64,000 bases of DNA. Origin: Chamaesiphon sp. (GTDB taxonomy: Bacteria > Cyanobacteriota > Cyanobacteriia > Cyanobacteriales > Chamaesiphonaceae). The notes under the pieces were generated by a model. That model was not told the DNA's origin. It ran no database searches and worked only from the letters and a program-made list of their open reading frames with translations. The DNA lies in assembly GCA_965246715.1 (NCBI GenBank), contig CBDFFH010000015.1:96001-160000 (forward strand), written 5' to 3'. Of this stretch, positions 3,526 to 48,392 are shown one piece after another. Position numbers and translations under genes: made by a program. How positions within the stretch are numbered: the first letter of the stretch is position 1; each line of letters opens with the position of its first letter.

Positions 3526-3797
3526 CATCAGTTTGGGAATTGAATCTCGAACTTGGTGCCGAAATGGGATTTAGCACCAAGATTTCTGTCCCCTTGTAGG
3601 CGGGACGTGCTGGTGTCGCGCCGATTTAAAGTACCAGCATTCCCGAAGGGTATTGTTAAAAAAGATCGATCCATAACTTAATTTGGAAATGTTGGCACTT
3701 TTTACTCGGCTTGTCAATCTACTGTATTAGTCATTACTCAATGATGGCTATTTCGTTAGAATATGTAAGACATTTGCAAGCCGATCGACTTATCTAA

Positions 3798-4652
3798 ATG
3801 ACTAATGCACTATACCAACAAATCCAAGAATTTTATGATGCCTCTAGCGGGCTATGGGAAGAGGTCTGGGGCGAGCACATGCATCATGGGTATTATGGTA
3901 GGGATGGAAATCTCAAACTCGATCGTCGTCAAGCACAAATAAATCTAATTGAAGAACTGCTGACTTGGGCACAACAGAAATCGAGTCCCCAGCCCCAAAC
4001 AATTCTCGATGTCGGCTGTGGAATTGGTGGTAGTAGTCTATATTTAGCCGAAAAATTTGGGTCGAAAGTAACAGGAATTACCCTCTCCCCCGTTCAAGCA
4101 AATCGCGCTAAAGAGCGTGCCAAACTAGCTAGACTGACCGCAACTACCGATTTTCAGGTGGCAAATGCTTTAGAAATGCCGTTTGCCGATAATAGTTTCG
4201 ATCTGGTTTGGTCGCTAGAAAGTGGCGAACACATGCCTGATAAAGTGAAATTTCTTCAGGAGTGTTATCGGGTACTCAAGCCCGGTGGAAAATTAATTTT
4301 GGCAACTTGGTGTCACCGTCCGCTGAGTGAGGCAAATCCGCTATCAATCTACGAGCAAAAAGAGTTACAAGAAATTTATCGGGTTTATTGCTTGCCTTAT
4401 GTAGTGTCGCTTCCAGAATATATCGCAATTGTCGATCGATGTGGATTTAGAGATTTGCATAGCGCTGATTGGTCGCCAGCAGTTGAGCCATTTTGGGATG
4501 TAGTAATCGATTCGGCCATTACGCCGCGATCGATTGTTGGGCTATTTAAGGCGGGTTGGCAGACCATCGAGGCAGCAATGTCGTTGCAATTAATGAGCAA
4601 TGGTTATCGGAGTGGATTGATTCGCTTTGGTTTGATTGCCGCAACGAAATAA
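3798..4652 (+). CDS. SAM-dependent methyltransferase, gamma-tocopherol methyltransferase (VTE4-like)
   Basis: FYDASSGLWEEVWGEHMHHGYY, ILDVGCGIGGS, WSLESGEHMPDK; adjacent to hppD. Confidence 0.88.
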   Translation: MTNALYQQIQEFYDASSGLWEEVWGEHMHHGYYGRDGNLKLDRRQAQINLIEELLTWAQQKSSPQPQTILDVGCGIGGSSLYLAEKFGSKVTGITLSPVQANRAKERAKLARLTATTDFQVANALEMPFADNSFDLVWSLESGEHMPDKVKFLQECYRVLKPGGKLILATWCHRPLSEANPLSIYEQKELQEIYRVYCLPYVVSLPEYIAIVDRCGFRDLHSADWSPAVEPFWDVVIDSAITPRSIVGLFKAGWQTIEAAMSLQLMSNGYRSGLIRFGLIAATK

Positions 4653-34852: not shown

Positions 34853-36124
34853 ATGGCAATACGCGAAGTTTTCATGCCTGCTCTAAGTTCCACTATGACT
34901 GAAGGCAAGATTGTCTCCTGGCAGAAATCACCAGGTGATAAAGTCGCAAAAGGTGAAATTGTTGTCGTGGTGGAATCTGACAAGGCAGATATGGATGTCG
35001 AAACCTTCTATGAAGGCTTCATTGCGACGATTATCGTTCCCGCTGGCGAATCCGCACCTGTCGGATCGGCAATCGCCTTAGTGGCAGAAACCGAAGCCGA
35101 AATCGAGATTGCCAAACAGCAAGCAAATGGCAAATCTCCAGCTACCGCAACCCCCACAGTCACCCCCGCTACAACTCCCACCACTACTCCTGTCGCCGCA
35201 GTAGTCGCAACTGCAACCGTACTGAGAAGCGATCGACCGGTAGTTTCCCCCCGTGCGAGGAAATTAGCTAAAGAATATGGTGTAAGCGTCGAATCATTAC
35301 ATGGTACTGGCCCAAATGGACGAATTACTGCTGAAGATGTCGGTAATGCCGCAGGTAAACCCGTTGCCGTCACCGCTCCACCGGTAACTCCAGTCGCCGT
35401 ACCTGCTCTTACACCGCCACCAGCACCCAGCCTGCCTGTCAATGTACCCGCCGCGCAAGTCGTACCCTTTAACACGCTCCAATCCGCTGTCAACCGCAAT
35501 ATGGTCGCCAGCCTTGCCGTACCGACCTTCCATGTCACCTACACGATCGAAACCAATAACCTCGATAAACTCTACAAGCAAGTCAAATCCAAAGGTGTCA
35601 CCATGACCGCACTGCTAGCTAAAGCAGTCGCTATGACCCTCGCCAAACACCCCACCGTCAACGCTAGCTATTCCGATGCCGGAATCCGCCATCCAGGGAC
35701 GATTAACATTGCCGTGGCGGTTGCCATGCCCGATGGCGGTTTGATTACCCCCGTCCTCCAAAATGCTGACAAACTCGATCTCTACTCCCTCTCGCGAGCT
35801 TGGAAAGATTTGGTCGATCGAGCGCGGCTCAAGCAGCTACAGCCCCAAGAATACAGTTCAGGCACCTTTACTATCTCTAACCTCGGCATGCTCGGAGTCG
35901 ATACCTTCGACGCGATTTTACCTCCAGGTACGGGTGCGATTCTTGCCGTCGGTGCTTCCCAGCCACAAGTCGTAGCAACTGAGGAAGGTAGCTTCTCGAT
36001 CCGCCGTCAAATGAAGGTAAATATGACAGCCGATCATCGGGTTATTTACGGTGCTGATGGTGCGAATTTCCTCAAGGATTTGGCACTATTACTCCATACC
36101 AACGTCCAATCATTGACGATGTAA
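34853..36124 (+). CDS. pdhC: Dihydrolipoamide acetyltransferase (PDH E2)
   Basis: Lipoyl domain MPALSSTMTEG..ESDKA, E3-binding domain SPRARKLA..GTGPNGRI, catalytic DHRVIYGA. Confidence 0.96.
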   Translation: MAIREVFMPALSSTMTEGKIVSWQKSPGDKVAKGEIVVVVESDKADMDVETFYEGFIATIIVPAGESAPVGSAIALVAETEAEIEIAKQQANGKSPATATPTVTPATTPTTTPVAAVVATATVLRSDRPVVSPRARKLAKEYGVSVESLHGTGPNGRITAEDVGNAAGKPVAVTAPPVTPVAVPALTPPPAPSLPVNVPAAQVVPFNTLQSAVNRNMVASLAVPTFHVTYTIETNNLDKLYKQVKSKGVTMTALLAKAVAMTLAKHPTVNASYSDAGIRHPGTINIAVAVAMPDGGLITPVLQNADKLDLYSLSRAWKDLVDRARLKQLQPQEYSSGTFTISNLGMLGVDTFDAILPPGTGAILAVGASQPQVVATEEGSFSIRRQMKVNMTADHRVIYGADGANFLKDLALLLHTNVQSLTM

Positions 36125-36231
36125 GTCTTTGATTAGTTACATTTATCCCTGTCAGTTTTGATGGGGGTTTTTGCTGTCGTTTTTTAGCGACTGCATCCTG
36201 ATATTCGATCGAAATGTTGAAAATTCTCATC

Positions 36232-36273
36232 GATGTGTTCGATTACTTAGATTTGTTGTGTTGATGACAATCG
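36232..36273 (-). pseudogene. Fragment of a second copy of the antitoxin at 40896-41147
   Basis: 38/42 nt identical to 41067-41108 (RLSSTQQI*VIEHI vs RLSSTEQIQVIEHI). Confidence 0.75.
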
Positions 36274-36313
36274 CACAATACATCACAGGTAGTCGAGCTG
36301 GAGTCTTGTTAGT

Positions 36314-36405
36314 CGATCGAGTCTTCAATTTAGCGAGCGCTTGTTCCAATAACTCAGTCGTACAGATCGGTTTAGATATAGTCCATCTGGTCTAATTTTA
36401 TTTTA
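36314..36405 (-). repeat. Module A copy 1: -10 box, leader and truncated 'TELLEQALAKLKTR' ORF (start mutated to ACG)
   Basis: Homologous to 37009-37140, 40313-40445 and 41177-41336; ends at CGATCG 36314-36319. Confidence 0.85.
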
Positions 36406-36486
36406 GTTGGAATCGATATGTAATCGAATCGATCGAGCATAATATAAGTACAGCATAAATCGATCGATTCGATCGTCATAGTCAAT

Positions 36487-36681
36487 ATGAGTACACCCGT
36501 AAAAGAACAGTACATCATTGATGCCGAAGGGAATAAGACAGCCATCATATTGTCCATCGAGCAATACGAACAAATGTTAGAAGATCTCCACGATCTTGCT
36601 ATTGTTGCCGAACGTCGTACCGAACAGCCAGTCAGCCTCGCCAACATGCAAGAGTGGTTAAAAGAAGATGGAATCTTATGA
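36487..36681 (+). CDS. Type II antitoxin (RelB/Phd-like)
   Basis: 64 aa acidic, QYIID..GNKTAIILSIEQYE..LEDL.D; overlaps the downstream toxin. Confidence 0.8.
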   Translation: MSTPVKEQYIIDAEGNKTAIILSIEQYEQMLEDLHDLAIVAERRTEQPVSLANMQEWLKEDGIL

Positions 36682-36934
36682 AATTGAATTTCAGCCATCG
36701 GTACGCAAGGATTTTCGGAAGCTGTCGCCAGATAATGCTAGCCAAATTTTACCAAGGATTGAAGAATTAGCTAAACATCCTTTTCCCCCTCAATCTATTA
36801 AGCTGAAAGGGAGCGAACGACTATATCGAATTAGGGTTGGTGATTACCGAATTGTGTATGAAGTCGATGTAGATGCCTGCCGGATTTTAATTTATCATGT
36901 CAGACACAGACGCGAAGTTTATCGCGATTTATGA
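36668..36934 (+). CDS. relE: RelE/ParE-family toxin
   Basis: YEIEF..V.KDFRKL, P.P.S.KLKG...YRIRVGDYRIVY, VRHRREVY. Confidence 0.92.
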   Translation: MESYEIEFQPSVRKDFRKLSPDNASQILPRIEELAKHPFPPQSIKLKGSERLYRIRVGDYRIVYEVDVDACRILIYHVRHRREVYRDL

Positions 36935-37008
36935 TTGCTACAATCTTTTAGCTTACTTGTTGGTATAGTAGATTCAATGAGAAATCGAGCGATCCACAAC
37001 TCAAGTTC

Positions 37009-37140
37009 TTATTTAGGATCGATCGATCTCGAATCTCGATCGCTAATCGATCGAGTCTTCAGTTTGGCAATAGCTTCTTCCAGTAACTCAGCCATACAAA
37101 TCAGTCTAGGTATAGTTAATCTAGTCTAGTTTTATTGTAA
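37009..37140 (-). repeat. Module A copy 2 (28-aa ORF MAELLEEAIAKLKTRSISDRDSRSIDPK, 37009-37095)
   Basis: TACAAT -10 box, conserved leader; flanked on both sides by module B (36991-37025, 37147-37188). Confidence 0.85.
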
Positions 37141-37195
37141 TCGATCGATCGACAACTCAAAGCACCAAATTATTGTCTAGGAGCGATCGTCAAAA

Positions 37196-37495
37196 CTAAC
37201 TTTTATCTGATGAATCATCCGTGTTGCTTTGTCCTGGTGGTAAGCGTAAACGGTTTTCTTGTTCCAGTAGTGCATTTTTCAGTTGTAAAACTAGATTTTC
37301 TTGTTTGAGCTTTTCTTTCTCTCGTTCGTTGTTTGCTCTGTCTTCATTTCGTTGAACTACTCGTGCCAAATTATCAACAGCCGATGTCAAATCTTTCAAA
37401 TCTTACCTGAGTTCTTTGATATCTGCTGTATTCTTTTCAACTTGTCCCTTGAGAGTGAGAATATCTTTGCCGAAGCTATATAGTTTTTTCCACAT
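37196..37495 (-). pseudogene. Small coiled-coil gene with a premature TAA at codon 31
   Basis: MWKKLYSFGKDILTLKGQVEKNTADIKELR*DLKDLTSAV...RLPPGQ; frame continues through the stop at 37403-37405. Confidence 0.75.
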
Positions 37496-37519
37496 TATTT
37501 GATGAATGATGTCAAGTTG

Positions 37520-39007
37520 CAGGGTGAACGCATCAAAACAGGATTTATTTCGATCGAGAGCCACTAAAATAGGCGATTAATGATATTCGATTGCTTAACT
37601 ACAATTACGACAATATCAATAAAATCGAAACCAAAGACGAGGTTAAATTAACTCAATTTAGTCCGGCAAAAGTGCGGCTAAAGATATTTAGCCAAATTCA
37701 TACTCTGGGGTTAGTTAAATTTAGGCTAAAATAGCCTCTAGAAGTTCGCGCGAATATTCTTCATCAAGGCTCGCAAGAAATCGCTTCTTCCTAACACTTA
37801 GTTTTCGACTCTTGTTCTGACTCATTATATTAACTGCTATATGTCTTAAAACAGCAAAATTAGCTGGAGCATTATCTTTTCTAATTCGACTAATGTCTTC
37901 TTTGAAAATAACATCAAGTACCCAATGGAGTGAATTTTCTATCGACCAATGACCTCTGATTGCTTCTGCTAGTTTTTCAACATTATCTTCTAAGCTACTG
38001 ATGAAATAACGAGCTTCTACGCTGGTTTTTTCATTGACAACTCGAACTGATTCTACCATGCAAATACTAGTCAGATTTTGCCATTTTAGCAATGGATCTA
38101 TTGATGTTGCAATGTCTGATATCATTAGGTAATTACGAGTTTCCTCTCTACCTCTATTCATCTCTCTACTGCTGAAGCTATGCGTTTTCAGACTTTCACC
38201 ACGAGTTTTAATCGCCTGTTTGAATAGCTGTTCTACCCTTTCATATAAACTTGGTTGATTCTTTTTGACAGCAATTACATAATCTGCTTCTTTTTTGACA
38301 ATTTTCTTGACTATTTCTCGCTGACATCCCATTGCATCAATTGTCACTATACATCCAGCTAGATCTAAGGCATTAATCAACTCAGGCAATGCAGTAATTT
38401 CATTTGATTTACTCTCGACTTTTGTTTGTCCTAATACTAATCTATTACTTGCTGCCCAAGCACTGACCGTATTAATTACTCCTTTACCATTTTTTTCGTC
38501 TCTTGAATTTCGAGATTGTTTTCCATCAAATGCGATTATCTCTCCTGCTGTTATTTTACTTATTCCTTTAATCCAATGCAGGAAAGATTTATTGAATTCT
38601 TCAGGATTAATTTGTGAAAATACCCGTGCAAATGTATCGTGAGATGGTATCCCATTCGGTAATTCTAGAAATTCCTCCAGCCATTTTTTTCTGGTGATGC
38701 CATACAGCTCTATGTCTTCCCATCCATCTGCTCCACATACTACTGCACAAATCGAGATCGTGATAATATCGATTAGTTTGTGTTTTTTCCCCCGTTCAAT
38801 TCTAATGTCTTTTATGTCACCAAAGTGTTCTGCGATACTATGCCTTGGCTTTAGCTTCATTTGACGCGATCTGAATTTCCAATAAATATAACATAATTAA
38901 CTGGCTATACTTGTTTACCATTAAAGCTTTCATACTTTTCGTAATTCAAATCTGCAACTGATTTGCGAGGATTTTAAATAGTAGGAAATTTAAGTGCGTT
39001 CACCCTG
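37520..39007 (-). mobile_element. ISAs1-family insertion sequence, 1488 bp, complete
   Basis: 13-bp TIR CAGGGTGAACGCA; 10-bp TSD TGTCAAGTTG at 37510-37519 and 39008-39017. Confidence 0.95.
37721..38860 (-). CDS. ISAs1-family DDE transposase (H-repeat-associated)
   Basis: GIPSHDTFARV, IAFDGK, KSNEITALP, VTIDAMGCQ, HWSIENSLHWVLDV. Confidence 0.96.
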   Translation of the reverse strand: MKLKPRHSIAEHFGDIKDIRIERGKKHKLIDIITISICAVVCGADGWEDIELYGITRKKWLEEFLELPNGIPSHDTFARVFSQINPEEFNKSFLHWIKGISKITAGEIIAFDGKQSRNSRDEKNGKGVINTVSAWAASNRLVLGQTKVESKSNEITALPELINALDLAGCIVTIDAMGCQREIVKKIVKKEADYVIAVKKNQPSLYERVEQLFKQAIKTRGESLKTHSFSSREMNRGREETRNYLMISDIATSIDPLLKWQNLTSICMVESVRVVNEKTSVEARYFISSLEDNVEKLAEAIRGHWSIENSLHWVLDVIFKEDISRIRKDNAPANFAVLRHIAVNIMSQNKSRKLSVRKKRFLASLDEEYSRELLEAILA

Positions 39008-39196
39008 TGTCAAGTTGGCAATCATCTTTCTTGTATCTACTTTCAATCTGTCGATCTCTGCCCGATCTGCTTGAATACGAAGATCGCTGAGTTTTATCTG
39101 GGCAAGGATATTATCGATCTCCTTCTCTTTTATTTCTTGCTCATGGGTGTCTTTCTCTTGCGAAAGCTCTAGTTCGGTGGGAAAGGCTGCTTCCAT
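38990..39196 (-). CDS. Small coiled-coil protein whose last codons were replaced by the IS end
   Basis: Removing the IS gives ...IANLTSFIK* with a TAATG overlap onto the 37495 gene. Confidence 0.7.
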   Translation of the reverse strand: MEAAFPTELELSQEKDTHEQEIKEKEIDNILAQIKLSDLRIQADRAEIDRLKVDTRKMIANLTQGERT

Positions 39197-39416
39197 CTAT
39201 CAATATCTCCGTTGTTCTCTCAATACTACGATCGAGTCTCGATGCTACTATTATAAGCTATGTTTCAATCTAGGCAATAATTCTATCTCGATCGCTAGTA
39301 TGCTAGAATTCGATCGGGTCTATCCCTTTGCAAACTCGATCGAGAGATACTTTCCATTCTTACCAAGTTTCTGTCTACTCTACCAGAAGCTATAATTATA
39401 TCGCTGATGTTAAGAG

Positions 39417-39872
39417 TCAAGTTTGAGTGAATATATCTTTCTTAAGGTATATAATGTTAACAAATTCATCGTGTAGATGCTGAAAATTTTTGTCCATTGT
39501 TATCAAGTTGCATTCATAGAATGAAGCTGTTGCTGCAATCCATAGATCATTTTTCCCCATTGTAATTGCCGAGAAATTACCGACTAAGTTAAGATGCTTT
39601 CTTTTGCTGTAACAATCTATATTGACATATCGCTCGAGAATATCTGGCAAATTGATATCTAGGATTGGGATCTCGGTCAAAAATTCTTCCATATTTTTGA
39701 GATTCTTTTTTCCCCAATTAAACTGAATTGCTAGAGATCGAATTTCGGCTACCGTAACAATAGATATGTATTCGTCTAAATATCTAGCTTTCAAATGAAT
39801 TTGCAATTTGTCGATCGAATCTGCTCTACGCAGAATGTAGAGAATGACATTTGTATCGTATAGAACTCGCAA
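39417..39872 (-). CDS. vapC: PIN-domain (VapC) toxin
   Basis: LYDTNVI, ISIVTVAEI, MGKNDLWIAATA..LITMDKNF. Confidence 0.9.
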   Translation of the reverse strand: MRVLYDTNVILYILRRADSIDKLQIHLKARYLDEYISIVTVAEIRSLAIQFNWGKKNLKNMEEFLTEIPILDINLPDILERYVNIDCYSKRKHLNLVGNFSAITMGKNDLWIAATASFYECNLITMDKNFQHLHDEFVNIIYLKKDIFTQT

Positions 39873-39874
39873 TT

Positions 39875-40081
39875 CTATTTATCTTCCTCTAGTTCCTTTA
39901 ACATTGCTACAAACTCTGCATCAGTAAATTCTAGGCTTCCTGCATATTTAGATGCGATCGAGCGATTGGTATTGGTTTCCGATCGATCGGGTGCAGATTG
40001 GAGGTATGTTAGTAGATCTAGTCTTTCTTGTGGTGACAGCGTTGCCGCTCGGTCGATTAGCTCAGTTAGTTTGGGTGTCAT
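39875..40081 (-). CDS. Putative antitoxin of the adjacent VapC
   Basis: 68 aa, LSPQERLDLL, acidic tail; ends 2 nt before the toxin start. Confidence 0.75.
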   Translation of the reverse strand: MTPKLTELIDRAATLSPQERLDLLTYLQSAPDRSETNTNRSIASKYAGSLEFTDAEFVAMLKELEEDK

Positions 40082-40312
40082 ACTCTAGTTGCGCTCCTAT
40101 CGATCGAGCCATTTTTAGCTCTCGACTCTACTATTATAAACTGCTCGATCGTTGATTAAAAGCACTTTCCTCTCGATCGAGTCAGCTTGGCGCGGGCTGT
40201 AGCGATTGGGGATCGATCCCAGAGGTGGAGTCGATGGAGATCGATAGTATGCCAGAATTCGATCGAGTCTATACCCTTGCAAACTCGATCGATCGACAAC
40301 TCAAATTCTCAT

Positions 40313-40445
40313 TTAGGATCGATCGATCGATATCGAATCTTGCTCGCTAATAGGACGAGTCTTCAGTTTGGCAATAGCTTGTTCCAGCAACTCGGTCATA
40401 CAAATCAGTCTAGGTATAGTTAATCTGGGCTAGCTTTATTTTAAG
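40313..40445 (-). repeat. Module A copy 3 (28-aa ORF MTELLEQAIAKLKTRPISEQDSISIDRS, 40313-40399)
   Basis: TAAAAT -10 box and conserved leader; joined via CGATCG runs to modules B and C. Confidence 0.85.
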
Positions 40446-40449
40446 TAAT

Positions 40450-40896
40450 TTACAGTGTTAGCTCACTTACTACGATCGATCGAATTTCTGTCACTTTACT
40501 TAACGCGATATCATTGGTCAAAAAAGCGTCACAATTAGAAACGATTGCCGTAGCAATTTGAATTGCATCTGGTAACTTCAATCCATATTTGACTCTCATT
40601 TTTACTGCTTCAATTGCTACTAGTTCGTCGGTGATTCTAAATATCACACTTTCATTCCGTATCAAAGCATCTGCAAAATCTTGTTGCAGTTCTAACAATC
40701 CCTGTCGATAGGGTACGATCGAACATTCAGCTAGAGTTATGGGCGAACTTACTGCTAGTAAATCTCCATCACTCAAACTCTCAAATATCGGTCGTACCAA
40801 TGGAAAAAAAGTTGGGTGTCGCTCGATATAATAAATAACTGGAGCCGTATCTAAAAATATTAGCTTCACCCCTGCAATCGCTTGTTCTATTTTCAT
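40450..40896 (-). CDS. vapC: PIN-domain (VapC) toxin
   Basis: IFLDTAPVIYYIE, SSPITLAE, YGLKLPDAIQIATA..FLTND; start MKIEQ coupled to the antitoxin stop (TGATG). Confidence 0.92.
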   Translation of the reverse strand: MKIEQAIAGVKLIFLDTAPVIYYIERHPTFFPLVRPIFESLSDGDLLAVSSPITLAECSIVPYRQGLLELQQDFADALIRNESVIFRITDELVAIEAVKMRVKYGLKLPDAIQIATAIVSNCDAFLTNDIALSKVTEIRSIVVSELTL

Positions 40897-41147
40897 CAGT
40901 CTGTCAGGATCTGTTCTTCCCGCTGCGACCAATCATTTCGCTCTCTATTCACCCATGCTTGAGCATCTTCACCATTCAATAAATTGGGTGCAATTCCCGC
41001 CAATTCTCGCCAGGATTTGCTTTTTCTGGGCGGTGTAGTTGTTACTACTTCTTTGAGATTGACTGTGATGTGTTCGATGACTTGGATTTGTTCTGTTGAC
41101 GACAATCGATCGATCTCGGTCAGTATTTGTTGTAATTGAGGACTCAT
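40896..41147 (-). CDS. Putative antitoxin of the adjacent VapC
   Basis: LS..EQIQVIEHI..SWRELAG.AP....GEDAQAWV..ER..W; AGAGG RBS. Confidence 0.82.
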   Translation of the reverse strand: MSPQLQQILTEIDRLSSTEQIQVIEHITVNLKEVVTTTPPRKSKSWRELAGIAPNLLNGEDAQAWVNRERNDWSQREEQILTD

Positions 41148-41176
41148 CTTTCTACCTCTGAATACTTGTCTCTATT

Positions 41177-41336
41177 TTAACTTGGGTTTCGATCGCATGT
41201 ATGCCTTGTAAAATCGATCTCGATCGAGTTTTGCTCACTGATGGGACGAGTTTTCAATTGTGCGATCGCTTCTTCCAGCAATTTAGTCATACAAATCAGT
41301 CTAGGTATAGTTAATCTGGTCTATTTTTATTCTAAT
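41177..41336 (-). repeat. Module A copy 4 (37-aa ORF MTKLLEEAIAQLKTRPISEQNSI..., 41177-41290)
   Basis: TAGAAT -10 box; homology to the other copies stops at CGATCG 41221-41226; module B follows at 41342-41381. Confidence 0.85.
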
Positions 41337-41408
41337 CGATCGATCTCCAACCCAAAATACTAAATTCTTGTCTAAGATCGATTGAGATACAACTATATTG
41401 AAAGTCTA

Positions 41409-41720
41409 TCAGGATACATATTTAAAACCATTTCCATAAACAATCACTTCTGCACCCCCGGTAACTACGCTTGGATTAGCAATTTTTACTCCTATTACTC
41501 CATCATAACCAGCCTTTTTAGCTTTTTTATCTAACTCTTGCAATGCTATATCTATAGCCTCTTGGATCGTATCTTCATAATGATTCATCCGTCCACCTAT
41601 CAAATCTTTTATGTTTGATCGAATATCCTTAACAACGTTTGCAGAATTGACAATAACAATTGTCAGTAATTCACCAATTTCAATTCCTGGATTTTGCAAA
41701 GAATCTAGACTAACTAGCAT
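41409..41720 (-). CDS. YbjQ/UPF0145-family protein
   Basis: [38 protein letters not shown]; overlaps the 3' end of the upstream gene. Confidence 0.85.
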
Positions 41721-43536
41721 TTGATTCACCTAATATTTTTTGTGATTGAGTAGTCCGTTTCCATTGATAAAGTAAGACCAACGGTAATATAGCCAGAATG
41801 ATGAGCAAGGCAGACAAGAAAGCCATTGGAATAAAACCAAATTTGTCAGCCATTAATTCCCAGGAGATAGCACCTGTCGATAGCTTAAAGATTCCATCAA
41901 ATATCAAGAATTGATTATTTGGGGCTTCCCAAAATTCTATCGCAGCATTAATATTACCGCTTTTTACAATATGTGCCATGACGCTATTGTTTTTAATTAT
42001 TGAAGGATCTTCGTTAATTAAAAACTTTACAAGTTGATTTCTCTGTGGTTGTTTAAGCTCTTTTAAATAGCCTGCTAATCTTTCCAGATCGCTAGCTGAT
42101 AAATGCACAGAAAGTGATAGCAAGTTTTTCTTGGGTATCGACAGCAAGCTGCGAATAGAGTCAGTATTTAGAAGTGTAACTTTAGATATTGTAGAAGAAT
42201 CCTTTATCTCTAAAATATCTAGCAAAAGCTTGCGATCTAAATTTTCAAGGGGTAAATTTTTGTATAGCTCTAGCTCTATAACTTCTTTAATTTGATTGCC
42301 TGCTAAGTTATGCCACTCAACTAAGTCAGATAAGTTATGAGTAGTTTCAATCATTTTATAGCTAACTTCTGGCAATGATAGTGCTCGAGTAAATGTACCA
42401 TCTTTAATGGATTCCATTAGTTGGCTACGACCCATATTGTTTAAGGCAATACCTATCAGCAGAGATATTCTTGGTATATTATCTTCATTTAATATTTCTT
42501 TAAATTCAGGTAGCTCCCTAGCGATACTTAAAGTATCTCGAAAATCTTTCTGAAAATCCAGCCATGAAGCATAGACATCATTAGAAATTTCTCTAGCAAT
42601 TTGAGGAATTTCAGTCTGAACTTCTTTTTCTATAGTAGAGACTATTCCTTTTTGAATAGTTTGTTTTATATCTGGATTTTTCAGGGATTTCTGGATTGTT
42701 GGTAATGCTCCATCAAAACTTTTTATTAATTCAGTTCCAATTAGAGAAAGGCTAATAATCTCACCAATACCTGGAATTAATCCACTCCCAAAGCGACTTA
42801 GAACTCGCTCACTTAATTGTTGAAAAACTCTATTAGCAATTGTACCAACAACTTTTTTCCTGAGCTTTGCTGTAATCGAGGTAGCAAGGAAAGCACCACC
42901 ACCCATAAATCCAAATTTATGTTGCTCGATATATTGAATAGTATCTGGCTTTAAAGAACCTATTGCATCAGAATCTATATCCGAAGATTTGATTTTTTTA
43001 CTAAATGTATTTACGAATGCTTCTGAGTACTGGCGATTAACAAATTTCTGGAGACAATCGATAGCATAGGATGAAGATTTTGCGGAAGTCACTTCTAACT
43101 TGTCTGAAAGTGTTTCAGACACATTTTTAGATAATTGATTCAATTTTCCCTTTAACAATGGTGCATTGAATGCAATTTCAGTAACCTCATTAGCCAATTC
43201 TTCTGCTTTAGAGGGCATCCAACTGCTTTGAAATCGATTCATTAAGCCAGTATTATCATTAACCATCAGTACTGCATTATCAATTTCAGAATCAATAACC
43301 GAGTCAAGCTTTAATGTTCGCCATTCCCTATGAACTATGTCTCCAAAGTCCACATTGGTTTGATCTTCAAGAAAGTCCTGTATGCTAAGATTCAGATCTA
43401 GCCGTAATTGTGCCTCGCTAATTTCTTCGCACTTAGAAGGAAGATGATATACCTGTTCAGCAATTGGTGCTGCATATGCGACCGTATTGTTTATCATTAA
43501 ACAAAATATAAGGCACCATGTTAGTAATCTTTTCAT
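41710..43536 (-). CDS. Hypothetical 608-aa protein with a signal peptide and a C-terminal TM anchor
   Basis: Long AT-rich ORF, AxA-type cleavage (AYA-A), central Gly-rich hydrophobic stretch, C-terminal TM. Confidence 0.8.
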
Positions 43537-43738
43537 GGAAAATAAGATGCTGAATATTAATTAAATATGTTGTATGCACGGCAAAGTAGCCCTGTAGGTT
43601 TTAGCCAATTTTATACTGCGCTACTATAGTTAAATTAAGTATTCCCTGAATCACCTCCAAAACAGCAGTAACTAGAATTAAATTTTAGTTACTGCTACGG
43701 TAATTAGGACGTTCGAGATGAATGAAACCGATAGATAA

Positions 43739-43780
43739 AAAAATGAAGCAGAGTGGATCGATCCACTCTGCTTCATTTTT
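43739..43780. terminator. Perfect 42-bp palindrome downstream of glsF (likely terminator)
   Basis: AAAAATGAAGCAGAGTGGATC|GATCCACTCTGCTTCATTTTT. Confidence 0.75.
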
Positions 43781-43793
43781 ACAGCATCACGAC

Positions 43794-46700
43794 CTAAGCA
43801 CTCACAGCCTGTTTAGCACTAGTCTCCGGTGTTTCCGCCTCCGAAGGAGGCACCAACTGCCAGAACTTAGGCAGATACTCCGCCCACCGACTCAAGATTT
43901 CCTGCGCCTTCTGACTCCCCGTTTTCGCACCATGCGCCGCAATTAGATCCTTCAATTGCTTCTCACCTGCCGCTGTTTCTACCCGTTGCCATTTGACGAT
44001 TTCGGGATTGATTTTGGCGATGAAAGTGTCATCCTCGTCGAGGAAATAACCCAAACCGCCTGTCATCCCCGCACCGACATTCCGCCCGACTTGACCGAGG
44101 ACGACTACTACGCCGCCGGTCATGTATTCACAACAGTGATCGCCAGTACCTTCGACTACTGCGGTGGCGCGGGAGTTGCGGACGGCGAAGCGTTCGCCTG
44201 CTCGTCCGTTGGCGAAGAGGTAGCCGCCGGTGGCTCCGTAGAGGCAGGTATTACCGATGATGACGTTGCGGCTGGTATCGAAGGTAGTGCCTGTGTGGGG
44301 TTTGATGACGATTTCGCCGCCATTGATGCCTTTACATACGTAGTCATTGCTTTCGCCTGTGAGGATCAGGCTGACTCCTTCGTGGTTGAATGCGCCGAAG
44401 CTTTGTCCGGCTGCCCCCTCGAAGTTGAGCGTGAGTTGACCTTCAAAGGCGCTGTCGCCATATTTGAGGGCAATTGCACCGGAGATGCGTCCGCCAACAG
44501 ATCGATCGGTATTAATAATCTTCCAGGATTTACTTGCCACGCCTTGATTTGCGATCGCGGCTTGAATCTCGCTATCTGCTAGAATTTCATCATCCAAGAC
44601 GGTGCCATTGGTATGTACATCGCCGTGCGTGAGGAAGGATCGATCGACCTTCGTAGCTGGTAACTGTGTCAAGCAGTCGAGGTTGAGTGTTTTGACTTTA
44701 GTTAACACCACATCTGGACGCATGGTAAATAAATCTGCACGTCCGACTAGTTCGTTCAACGATCGATAGCCGAGCCGAGCTAAAATACTTCGCACTTCTT
44801 CGGCGATAAAGTAGAAGAAATTTACTACCTGTTCGGGGATGCCAGGGAAGCGCGCGCGTAAGTCTTCGCGCTGGGAAGCTACGCCGACGGGACATTTATT
44901 GGTATGACAGATGCGCGCCATGATACAACCTTCAGCGATCATCGCGATCGAACCGAAGCCATATTCTTCCGCGCCCATTAACGCAGCGACGATAATATCC
45001 CAGCCGGATTTTAACCCACCATCGACGCGGAGTAAGACGCGATCTCGTAAGTTATTTTCCATTAGCACTCGGTGAACTTCAGTTAGACCGAGTTCCCATG
45101 GGCTGCCAGCATGTTTGATAGAGGATAGGGGCGACGCACCCGTACCGCCGTCGTGACCAGAGATCTGGATGATGTCGGCGTTGGCTTTGGCTACGCCTGC
45201 GGCGATAGTACCGATGCCGATTTCGGCGACGAGTTTGACGGATACTCGGGCTTTCGGGTTGATTTGGTGGAGATCGTAGATTAGTTGCTCTAGATCTTCG
45301 ATCGAGTAAATATCGTGGTGCGGTGGTGGGGAAATCAGCATTACCCCTGGTTTCGATCGCCGCAACATGGCGATGTATTGGCTGACTTTTGGCCCTGGTA
45401 ATTGTCCGCCTTCACCTGGTTTTGCACCTTGGGCGAGTTTGATTTCGATCTGTTTGGCACTCATCAGGTATTCCGGTGTCACCCCAAAGCGTCCCGATGC
45501 TACCTGTTTGATCGCACTCATGGCGGTGTCGCCATTCCGCAAGCCATTTAAGTGCGGGAGAATAGATGATTTACCATTGACAGCATCATCGATCGTTTTA
45601 TAACGTACCGGATCTTCGCCGCCTTCGCCGCTATTAGATTTAGCACCGAGGCGATTCATCGCGATGGCGAGGACTTCATGAGCTTCCCGTGACAATGCGC
45701 CGAGGGACATCCCCCCAGTGCAAAAGCGTTTGACGATATCGCTTACCGACTCGACTTCTTCGAGACTAATGGGATTTCGATCGCTTTTGAAGTCCAGCAG
45801 GTCGCGTAGCGCCGTTAAGGGGCGTTCCTGAAGATATTTTTTATAGGTATCATAGTGGTCGTAACCCGCCTGAGTCTGGTAAGCATCTACCGCTTTGTGC
45901 AGTGCTTTGGCCATTTGGGGGCTATTCATGTGATACTCGCCACTGGGACGGTAGTTGAAGAAGCCGAGGTTTTCCAGCTTGCGGAGTTCTTGGGGGAACG
46001 CCTTGTGGTGGAATGTCATGGTTTCCTGGGCTACGTCGGCGATAGTCAAACCACCGATGCGGGAAGTCGTTCCTTTAAATGCGAGATCGAGTAATTGCCG
46101 ACCGATGCCGATCGCTTCAAAGATTTGCGCTCCTTGGTAGGATGATAATAAGGAGATCCCCATCTTCGAGAGAATTTTGAGCAAACCATCTTCGACGGCT
46201 TTGCGGTAATTAGCTTGCGCTTTGTCGATCGTCACTTTCAGTTCGCCGCGCGAAATTGCCGCTTGCGCTTTACTCGAATTCCACCAACTCCGGACGGATT
46301 CCCAAGCTAGGTACGGACAGACAGCCGAAGCACCAAAGCCAATCAGACAGGCGAAATGATGTGTGCTCCAGCACTGCGCGGTATCGACAATCAGCGATAC
46401 TCGACTGCGTAAGCCCCGATCGATCAGATAATGATGCACTGCACCGACAGCAACTAATGGTGGAATGTAGGTAATTTCCTCGGTTAAGCCGCTTTCCGAC
46501 CAATCGCTGAGCACGATAATCTGATTGCCTGAATTAACGTTATCGAATGCAGCGGCGCACAATCGCTCGATCGCAGGTTGCAATCCATTTGCGCCAGCCG
46601 CGACGGGATAGAGGGTGGATAAAAACCCACAACCGAGGGAGGAAGCTTTAATTACTTCCAATTCGGCTTCATTTAGCACGGGACTAGTTAATTTCAAGAA

Positions 46701-48392
46701 ACCAGCCGCTTCGGGTTTGGCTTCGAGTAAATTGCCTTTTTTCCCCAGACTGACATCGAGCGACATCACGAGTTTTTCGCGCAACGGATCGATCGCGGGA
46801 TTTGTTACCTGCGCGAACCGCTGTTTGAAGTAGTCGTAGAGCGGATGCGCTTTCTCTGACAATACCGCCAGGGGAATATCGTCGCCCATGCAGAAGGTTG
46901 GCTCCTTACCATTTTCCGCCATATCATTGACGATCGCCGTAATATCCTCTTCCGTGTAGCCGAAGGCGGTTTGCTGGCTCAGCAGTCCCGACTCGATCCG
47001 ACAACTAGTTTCAAACGTTTGTGCGGTGAGGGTTTGACGGTGCTCCTTGAGCCATGCGCCGTAGGGATGAGTTTTGGCGATGCGCTCTTTAACTTCCCAA
47101 TTATGTAAAATCTCTTGAGTTTCCAGATCGACGACAATCGTTTGGCCTGGGCCTAAGCGACCTTTTTCGACAATCTCGCTTGCAGGTAAATCGACGACTC
47201 CTGCCTCGGAGCCGACATATAGATAGCCATCTTTGGTAATGCAATACCTCGCTGGACGCAAACCATTGCGATCGAGTGTCGCGCCGACGATTTTGCCATC
47301 ACTAAACGAGAGCAACGCAGGGCCATCCCAAGCTTCTTGCAAACCGCTATAGTATTCATAAAAATCGGTAATCTCTGGATAATTCTCCAGTTCCGGCTGA
47401 TTTTTATATGCCTCTGGCACCATCATCATCAACCCCTCGATCGGACTCCGCCCCGATCGCACGATCAGTTCTAAGACATTATCTAATGTCCCCGAATCAC
47501 TATTATCCAGATTTAAAATCGGTTGCAATTCCCGCAACCTGTCCTTCCAAATCGGATGATTCAAATCGCCTTCCCGCGCGGTCATCCCATTAATATTTCC
47601 CAACAGGGTATTAATTTCCCCATTGTGTCCCAACATCCGCATCGGCTGTGCCAGCGGCCATTTTGGTAAGGTATTCGTACTAAATCGACGGTGATAGACC
47701 GCAAATGCCGCCGTAAATAGCGGATTGGTTAAGTCACTATAAAACTCGCCCAATACCGCCGATCGCACCATGCCTTTATACACGATCGTCCGACCAGACA
47801 GCGAACAGATATAGAAATCATCCCCAGGCTTAACCGTACCCTGTGATTGCAAGGCTTTGACAATTTTGCGCCGTACCAAATAAAACTGGCGTTCTAGCTC
47901 GTCGCCAGTAGCCGTTCCCGCGATAAATACTTGCTCGATACAAGGCTGATTTTCCCGCGCTTGCATCCCCAATGTCTCTGGATTGACAGGTACTTCCCGC
48001 CAGCCAATGAGTTGACACCCTTCGCGCTCGATCGTGTCAGCAATGATGCCCTTCGCAACACTCCGCTTGTATGCGTCTTGGGGTAAAAATACCATCCCCA
48101 CGCCCAATTGAGAGCGATCGCCCTGTGCGTACTCCCCAAACAACTCCCACGGAATACTCGTCAAAATCCCCGCCCCATCGCCAGAATCGCGATCGGCACT
48201 GCAACCACCGCGATGCTCCATACAAGTCAGCGCTGCCAAAGTTTGCTGGATTAATTTATGACTGGTCTTTCCCGCCGGACTAGCGATAAACCCCACCCCA
48301 CAAGCATCCCGCTCTTCCACGAGCCAGCGAGGTCCCAGGTAAGGAATATTATTAGCTTCAGGAGTATGCCAATGACTGTCAGATTGGTTCAT
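43794..48392 (-). CDS. glsF: Ferredoxin-dependent glutamate synthase
   Basis: ERDACGVGF (Ntn Cys), [48 protein letters not shown] repeats; no gltD nearby. Confidence 0.95.

Follow-up and report, generated by a model that had tools for sequence, protein, structure and literature searches.

Insertion with long target duplication places defence genes between long, variable direct repeats of the target, with no other mobile gene, according to the accessible part of the report that describes it (PMC2853133). The same accessible text draws its cases mostly from naturally competent species, with one from Microcystis, and gives the mechanism of release and invasion as unproven (Furuta, Abe, Kobayashi 2010, PMC2853133). 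Chromosomal toxin-antitoxin (TA) genes are described, in the available portion of another study, as clustering in spots of high turnover, where deletion and pseudogenisation wear them down (Belot et al. 2026, PMC13617665). Here we describe an array of TA cassettes in a 64,000-nucleotide stretch of a Chamaesiphon sp. genome, referred to as the window (positions 96001-160000 of contig C15 in the genome that we call G000; relatives carry the same style of label). The array lies between pdhC (34853-36124, plus strand) and glsF, the gene for the glutamate synthase large subunit (43794-48392, minus strand). In our reading, to which we assign a probability of roughly 0.6, it is one instance of a genus-wide, integrase-free cassette stack at the glsF 3' end, filled by the host's homologous recombination with DNA taken up within the genus. 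A first-pass annotation of this DNA had noted recurring modules and proposed cassette shuffling at HIP1 cores (CGATCG). Its observation is confirmed and its interpretation is supported in part, but it overlooked what is likely the main anchor, the host gene's own 3' end.

A query combining two of the recurring modules, A and B, matched 19 of 24 genomes of the same genus and none of 16 genomes from other families, nearly always as one cluster per genome. In 14 of the 19 genomes with modules, the array and the glsF 3' end are on one contig; among the other five, the glsF tail is missing from four assemblies, and the fifth has a contig that ends 300 nt past it. A lone module A remnant is present in G007, away from glsF. 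The first-pass annotation had taken the pdhC-glsF interval as the locus, but pdhC was rejected as an anchor, there being no array behind it in 21 other genomes examined. A phylum-wide glsF hotspot was also rejected: behind glsF in 17 outgroup genomes no array match was found (three of these stretches end early at contig ends), and two show small TA-looking open reading frames (ORFs) by eye. The far neighbour of the array is a different one in each genome, but since the genes behind pdhC and before glsF also differ between most genomes, we do not claim the array as a special rearrangement hotspot on that ground.

Comparison of 25 glsF-oriented stretches, drawn from 22 genomes, revealed arrays from ~350 nt to more than 10 kb in length. 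They hold a common pool of small gene pairs in permuted order, together with genome-specific cargo that sits mostly beside glsF and includes defence-type genes for a DNA methylase, GmrSD, DndB, NucS, T5orf172 and XisH/XisI and many without a known family. Methylase or restriction-type genes occur in the arrays of G024, G020, G022 and G003 and are absent from the window. The glsF-proximal cargo of G006 (L061:2870-5663 and L108, on unjoined contigs) contains a Mab-21-like fragment and a methylase-looking gene that precedes a duplicated glsF tail. Cassette content and module order thus vary among relatives, and neither attC nor a recombinase was found at the locus, in keeping with the variable, integrase-free hotspot that the first-pass annotation had envisaged.

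Within G000, the pool genes have close homologues at this locus only. The cassette blocks of G000 are 92-94% identical to those of G006, G008 and G015, though pdhC is 77-78% identical; conversely, they are 85-89% identical to those of the nearest relative, G011, though pdhC is 95% identical. As judged from these sequences, cassettes move between species. A one-time ancestral island that underwent local duplication and lineage-specific decay, with no ongoing exchange, is very unlikely. Many truncations are simple deletions whose overlap is 0-5 nt, and near-empty alleles (G009, G021 and G042) still hold fused cassette stumps and nothing else, as decay would predict, but cassette identity above the backbone between distant species and below it between close ones already largely refutes this explanation. 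The unique cargo beside glsF in most genomes and the mosaic glsF 3' end also speak against it. In the near-empty allele of G042 (L059:1101-1614), a palindromic element of ~137 nt lies exactly between an XisH stump and the stump of a helix-turn-helix gene.

The end of glsF itself varies. Sequences directly after its stop codon fall into several unrelated types across the genus. The glsF genes of G000 and G011 are 90-100% identical as far as nt 3600, followed by 85, 81, 92 and 84% in the next four 200-nt windows, and the distant pair G011 and G009 share 98% identity at nt 4001-4200 versus 66-90% elsewhere. Identity at fourfold sites is 0.76 at nt 3901-4200, compared with 0.43-0.63 upstream and 0.40-0.63 in pdhC, aas and ylqD. 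By these alignments, the 3' ~700 nt of glsF are exchanged between species, with nt 3901-4260 the likely crossover zone. Pieces of the glsF 3' end also lie within arrays, 890 nt long in G006 and shorter in G024 and G022.

The exchanged region carries a flip in strand composition. In glsF of the genus, G/T content at third codon positions of nt 3901-4260 is 8-28% across 19 copies, and over the final 62 codons it is 55-79% across 20 copies; the corresponding values in 17 outgroup glsF genes are 38-67% and 45-74%. This C/A-to-G/T flip, fed by both a C>T and an A>G preference, is present in all 19 genus glsF copies with data and absent from the 17 outgroup genomes. When flip scores were ranked, glsF came first of 2677 ORFs in G000 (0.56; mean 0.14, sd 0.06). 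A special hairpin between the C/A-rich and G/T-rich arms was unsupported, with folding z-scores of -2.2 to +0.9 relative to synonymous shuffles across four genes, those of the glsF arms being +0.5 and +0.9. Extreme windows of C-ending codons (0.92-1.0) with no terminal flip occur at G000:C21:153874-154941, C2:30429-32777 and C12:35562-37169.

Next in the flip ranking are a second glutamate synthase gene (gltB), metH, a gene that we take from its sequence to be alaS-like, and acnB. A downstream duplicate of the gene's own 3' end accompanies 6 of the 21 top flip genes versus 32 of 2656 others. In G000, stacks of small gene pairs separated by host-gene 3' copies lie behind the second glutamate synthase (C2:213433-233888), metH (C2:150000-164984) and acnB (C51:3944-18997), the metH copy measuring 1371 nt at 99.6% identity. 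The near-complete assemblies G011, with three metH 3' copies downstream, and G020 have the same anatomy at metH, and G000 and G013 have a common 4.4-kb metH cargo that is 92% identical, gene included. Duplicated pieces range from ~35 nt to 1.4 kb, their start points vary over more than 1 kb, and short copies tend to start just downstream of the flip. Long direct target repeats flank cargo at metH, gltB and acnB of G000 and at glsF of G006, G024 and G022. Elsewhere in G000 (C44:106398-108593), a 758-nt, 99.2% identical copy of a gene's 3' part stands 4.8 kb downstream, marking a further recent insertion that duplicated its target. Behind an htpG-like gene (G000:C2:235177-245878, L130/L131), small gene pairs form a second local-repeat array, which is denser and has its own CGATCG-rich spacer family and one weak attC-like remnant (C2:237223, E 0.06); neither a 3' duplicate nor a strong flip was found for this htpG-like gene.

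A bolder reading would make the 3' ends of both glutamate synthases, metH and acnB dedicated two-armed, flip-marked platforms, at which HIP1-core joints capture new defence and TA cassettes, the 45-nt GATC hub of module B stands in for attC, and transformation carries the cassettes from species to species, forming a recombinase-free integron analogue. We entertain this possibility tentatively and find it doubtful as a whole. Tandem accretion of integrative elements at the glsF 3' end, each carrying a replacement gene end, with the integrase lost or acting in trans, is in our view unlikely. Such elements would leave gene-cargo-3' fragment repeats, the newest cargo beside the intact gene and altered post-stop sequence, and tyrosine recombinases do exist elsewhere in G000. 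However, the pieces are of many lengths and start points and come from several unrelated genes, no invariant core with dyad symmetry is evident by eye in the glsF alignment, and no recombinase was detected at the fetched glsF, gltB and metH loci, near-complete genomes included. In that search, 23 recombinase queries from G000 and G007 gave no tblastn match on the window or these loci, although a very distant recombinase could be missed and several loci stop at contig breaks; none of the tyrosine or serine recombinase matches of G000 falls on contig C15. The only mobility genes in the inserts are transposases of insertion sequences (ISs), which are internal insertions with their own target duplication.

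The mechanism that we infer for growth of the stack at glsF is a likely one. Donor DNA of the form gene-cargo-repeat would pair through its upstream arm in the 3' ~700 nt of glsF; the partner of its downstream arm would be a duplicated glsF tail, or else a resident module or cassette (A, B or shared TA genes). The resulting double crossover, which would require no integrase, could insert or replace cargo beside glsF, displace older cassettes outward and multiply modules, and it would also swap the glsF end and terminator. New neighbours would first be joined by short-homology (illegitimate) joints, with the CGATC/GATCG core as the commonest single site. Unselective deletions would then reduce old cassettes to promoters and gene stumps, addictive TA pairs lasting longest. 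Competence families ComEC and DprA are present in the genome, and uptake itself is predicted. Deamination of single-stranded DNA and better pairing of G/T-rich strands are established concepts that can be invoked for the flip, which may be the footprint of repeated strand-asymmetric exchange at both arms, whether through deamination while single-stranded or through better pairing of G/T-rich invading strands. The geometry would fit, as the G/T-rich strand on both sides has its 3' end pointing away from the flip and could be the invading or single-stranded strand.

Several observations weigh against this account. Most relatives are represented by fragmented assemblies, several with 5-8% contamination, and many contigs end at the glsF tail. 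The window's array has no glsF fragment, such fragments being found in just 3 of the 25 stretches plus the G006 flank. Two fragment starts recur, at gltB nt 4429-4430 (twice in G000, once in G010) and at metH nt 2177-2179 (G000 and G011), and later deletions may vary fragment starts, which would mask a fixed crossover. The raised fourfold identity in glsF is partly a by-product of composition bias (64% C at third positions of nt 3901-4260). Finally, G000 has 22 tyrosine-recombinase matches over cut-off as well as integron remnants, which could act in trans.

In the window, the array and its flanks comprise the following features.

34853-36124, plus strand: pdhC (pyruvate dehydrogenase E2), the distal flank in G000 only; other genomes have different genes here.
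36232-36273, minus strand: internal fragment of an 83-aa antitoxin-like gene, beginning at that gene's GATCGAT (repeat search).
36310-36405, minus strand: module A1, promoter and truncated 5' end, lacking the start codon, of a 72-aa antitoxin-like gene (intact gene in G010 and G016).
36487-36681, plus strand: RelB-like antitoxin (PF18506).
36668-36934, plus strand: ParE/RelE-family toxin (PF05016).
36982-37028, minus strand: module B1 (short form), GATC-bounded hub (repeat search and genus comparison).
37029-37140, minus strand: module A2, terminating in a GATCG run after ~24 codons (repeat search; aligned block 37044-37139).
37143-37190, minus strand: module B2 (long form; genus comparison).
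37196-37495, minus strand: 99-codon gene without known family, with an internal stop, 94% identical to the G006 and G008 copies.
37520-39007, minus strand: ISAs1-family IS of 1488 nt with a 10-bp target duplication and a DDE transposase (Pfam and target duplication).
38990-39196, minus strand: 68-aa gene without known family, frequent in the genus pool, its 3' end struck by the IS.
39237-39343, minus strand: modules D1 (TATAAT box) and C1, lying upstream of the operon with the 68-aa gene.
39417-39872, minus strand: PIN (VapC-like) toxin (PF01850).
39875-40081, minus strand: 68-aa putative antitoxin (by position only, without family match).
40120-40142, minus strand: module D2 (TATAAT box; repeat search).
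40239-40444, minus strand: modules C2, B3 and A3, joined at GATC runs (repeat search and genus comparison).
40450-40932, minus strand: PIN (VapC-like) toxin (PF01850).
40896-41147, minus strand: 83-aa putative antitoxin, whose N-terminus recurs genus-wide with other C-termini and toxins.
41213-41385, minus strand: modules A4 and B4, the border between the shared pool and unique glsF-proximal cargo.
41409-43536, minus strand: YbjQ-family gene and 608-aa gene, absent from every other array examined.
43739-43780, minus strand: terminator-like hairpin 3' of glsF, in the post-stop sequence that varies across the genus.
43797-43982, minus strand: glsF tail, nt 4411-4596, third codon positions G/T-rich (0.79).
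44133-44492, minus strand: glsF nt 3901-4260, third codon positions C/A-rich (G/T 0.17), unusually similar between species.
43794-48392, minus strand: glsF, glutamate synthase large subunit (NF008730), the genus-wide array anchor.

The RelB-like/ParE pair, 92% identical to its G015 counterpart across 611 nt, and the two PIN genes each have the arrangement of a small antitoxin gene directly upstream of a toxin-family gene, and we predict these pairs to be type II TA systems. The 68- and 83-aa partners of the PIN genes gave no family match in Pfam and a further profile search, so that their antitoxin label denotes position only. The ISAs1 element, of which G000 has many identical copies, is a passenger; it splits a two-gene operon without known family whose downstream gene also has an internal stop. 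The YbjQ-family and 608-aa genes are likely the newest cargo of this array. Contigs from sequencing run X1, possibly the source sample, reproduce 36070-36585, 36670-37277, 39148-39891 and 41353-43768 with 0-1 differences, and several array joints are therefore not artefacts of this assembly, a concern that the first-pass annotation had raised. These read-derived contigs support single joints; the full array is not covered by any one contig or read, and excised circles would not show up in contigs. A 37-nt piece of glsF tail (window 43837-43873) also appears in X1 and X2 contigs, surrounded by unrelated sequence that is probably another strain's array.

A repeat search recovered every module noted by the first-pass annotation. 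Module A occurs four times (36310-36405, 37044-37139, 40348-40443 and 41239-41334), its copies being 76-80% identical to the first and copies 2 and 3 88% identical to each other; the copies are real, though the annotation had begun copies 2-4 some 20-60 nt ahead of the aligned block. Module B also occurs four times (36982-37028, 37143-37190, 40282-40328 and 41338-41385), module C twice (from 39290 and 40239) and module D twice (from 39237 and 40120; 23 nt, 87% identity, reading TATAAT on the minus strand), and the stray antitoxin fragment at 36232-36273 matches 41067-41108 over 42 nt at 90% identity. By blastn, modules A, B and C in G000 are essentially confined to this locus, with one or two weak matches of 26-39 nt elsewhere, so we rejected the possibility that they are dispersed repeats.

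Comparison with intact operons gives the modules an origin. Module A comprises the promoter of a 72-aa antitoxin-like gene together with its first ~17-24 codons. In G010 and G016 that gene is intact and followed by a ParE-like toxin; the window's copies stop at or close to its internal GATCG. Modules C and D are upstream regions of other operons. We accordingly read the modules as remnants of TA operon promoters and 5' ends and not as the purpose-built spacer blocks for which they had been taken. Module B comprises a core of 24-32 nt flanked by two GATC runs, forming a hub of ~45 nt overall. Its 30 copies in 15 genomes have 13 left and 20 right partner clusters in 26 combinations (the clusters are over-split), and their edges are GATC or CGAT in 30 of 30 cases on the left and 28 of 30 on the right, where the search pattern already contained the CG. 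Where new cargo meets the old pool, the border usually carries module A or B. An in-frame chimeric antitoxin-like gene (L032:10195-10470 and L048:1585-1860) joins the N-terminus of the 83-aa gene to the C-terminus of the 72-aa module A gene and is paired with a RelE toxin in two genomes, which suggests domain shuffling within the pool.

The many-partnered, GATC-bounded edges of module B invite an explanation in which shuffling is driven primarily by cutting or recombination directed at (methylated) CGATCG, with segments swapped between neighbouring cores. CGATCG is the commonest hexamer in G000 (4.6/kb) and reaches 27 in 1472 nt of array spacer (18/kb) versus 5.2/kb in genome-wide intergenic DNA. 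The array has a single copy of the full octamer, GCGATCGC, and the local form, TCGATCGA, has 22 copies; the available text of Elhai lists TCGATCGA as a HIP1 derivative in Chamaesiphon and Geminocystis (Elhai 2015, PMC4390886). Our stricter junction test used sharp breakpoints within 3 nt of CGATC/GATCG and simulated chimeras as a control. Among intergenic junction types, 92 of 275 (33%) lie at the core; the controls give 14.7% for shared intergenic positions and 14.4% for the 443 simulated joints. Both partners lie at the core for 160 of 546 intergenic pair ends versus 6.3% in simulation. Genic types are at the core in 23 of 136 cases (17%) versus 9-11%. These junctions are inherited, and the counts are hence not independent events. 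Looser tests based on BLAST ends were only weakly enriched (124 of 921 ends, or 13.5%, versus 9.3% simulated; 27 of 165 classes), because alignment ends drift to shared motifs, and in-gene truncations fell at the core in 14 of 96 cases versus 4% of positions, redundant references included.

Enrichment at the HIP1 core, as the first-pass annotation proposed, therefore stands, whereas its claim that most junctions fall there does not: 183 of 275 intergenic types (two thirds) and 113 of 136 genic types (five sixths) are off core, and joining is not site-specific. No other single site serves as a joint as often as CGATC/GATCG, yet the majority of joints lie away from it, which makes the core a frequent joint and not the engine. 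Alternative joints in contigs from other runs do fall on the same module edges, and HIP1 is reported, in the accessible part of the work, to increase transformation efficiency in Synechococcus PCC 7002 (10.1101/2024.09.10.611283; PMC13756078). Nevertheless, a motif found every ~215 bp cannot explain confinement of the modules to one locus, and a core-directed engine leaves the glsF anchor, the gene-tail copies and the flip unexplained. We thus judge it improbable as the primary engine.

An integron cassette array without its integrase (CALIN), served in trans by an IntI of the genus, was the remaining alternative. IntI exceeds the family cut-off in 7 of 27 genus genomes, with fragments in G000; true chromosomal integrons with typical attC exist in the genus (L069, L068, L072, L070 and L071), often with broken intI; and up to a dozen attC-like sites are scattered in G000 (C5, C21, C27, C37 and C51). 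However, an attC profile built from 7 genus sites, which recovers an eighth, unused site, had no match in the 25 glsF stretches, even with the cut-off relaxed to E<=1, modules A-D are absent from the genus integron arrays, and the cassettes end in variable stumps and not as precise units. With no attC and no intI at the locus, CALIN identity was rejected, and trans service of such an array is extremely unlikely. At the far end of the acnB stack, a truncated integron integrase and cassette region are present in two genomes (G000:C51:367-2600; L073, that is, G014:C160), with a G000 attC at C51:2511-2595.

Our literature search turned up no description of this array or the flip, nor of cyanobacterial TA stacks anchored on gene tails, most subscription papers and supplements lying outside the search. 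The junction set offers natural material for the long-open question of HIP1 function, with the core as a favoured but not exclusive joint. The synonymous strand flip marks such hotspots from sequence alone, as with the top-ranked genes of G000, and a scan for it could be extended to other genomes. Were the arm model true, it would also point to a marker-stacking site for cyanobacterial engineering.

Among known systems, hotspots of horizontal gene transfer are reportedly flanked by recombining core genes (Oliveira et al. 2017 are said to have described this). In TA spots and such hotspots, acquisition is linked to transposases and integrases or to conserved flanks on both sides, whereas the array described here has one conserved flank and no recombinase. 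Like integrons and CALINs, it is polarised, with the newest cargo at one end, TA cassettes with their own promoters and a pool common to species; unlike them, the locus lacks intI, attI and attC, its joints are imprecise, and the host gene's coding tail is exchanged. In homology-facilitated illegitimate recombination during natural transformation, one homologous anchor and a short-homology joint import foreign DNA, in laboratory assays with other phyla. The same logic of anchor plus short joint may apply here, although we know of no case in which that process builds up arrays by iteration and leaves a footprint in composition. Joints at the CGATCG core, and a module B that is very short and core-bounded, recall HIP1-associated recombination and SDR5 as the available texts present them (Elhai 2015, PMC4390886; PMC5861425). 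SDR5 is given there as a dispersed Nostocaceae repeat (PMC4390886; PMC5861425); module B, in contrast, is confined to one locus, and the HIP1 octamer is almost absent from the array, the genus using its derivative. Overall, the closest known system is, on our best reading, insertion with long target duplication, of which this array may be an extreme, iterated form. The described cases are single restriction-modification insertions with repeats of ~45-420 bp among the table rows available (PMC2853133). Here, by comparison, events are stacked at one core-gene end genus-wide, the cargo is mainly TA pairs, recycled promoter modules serve as the second repeat, and the target gene bears a strand-composition flip.

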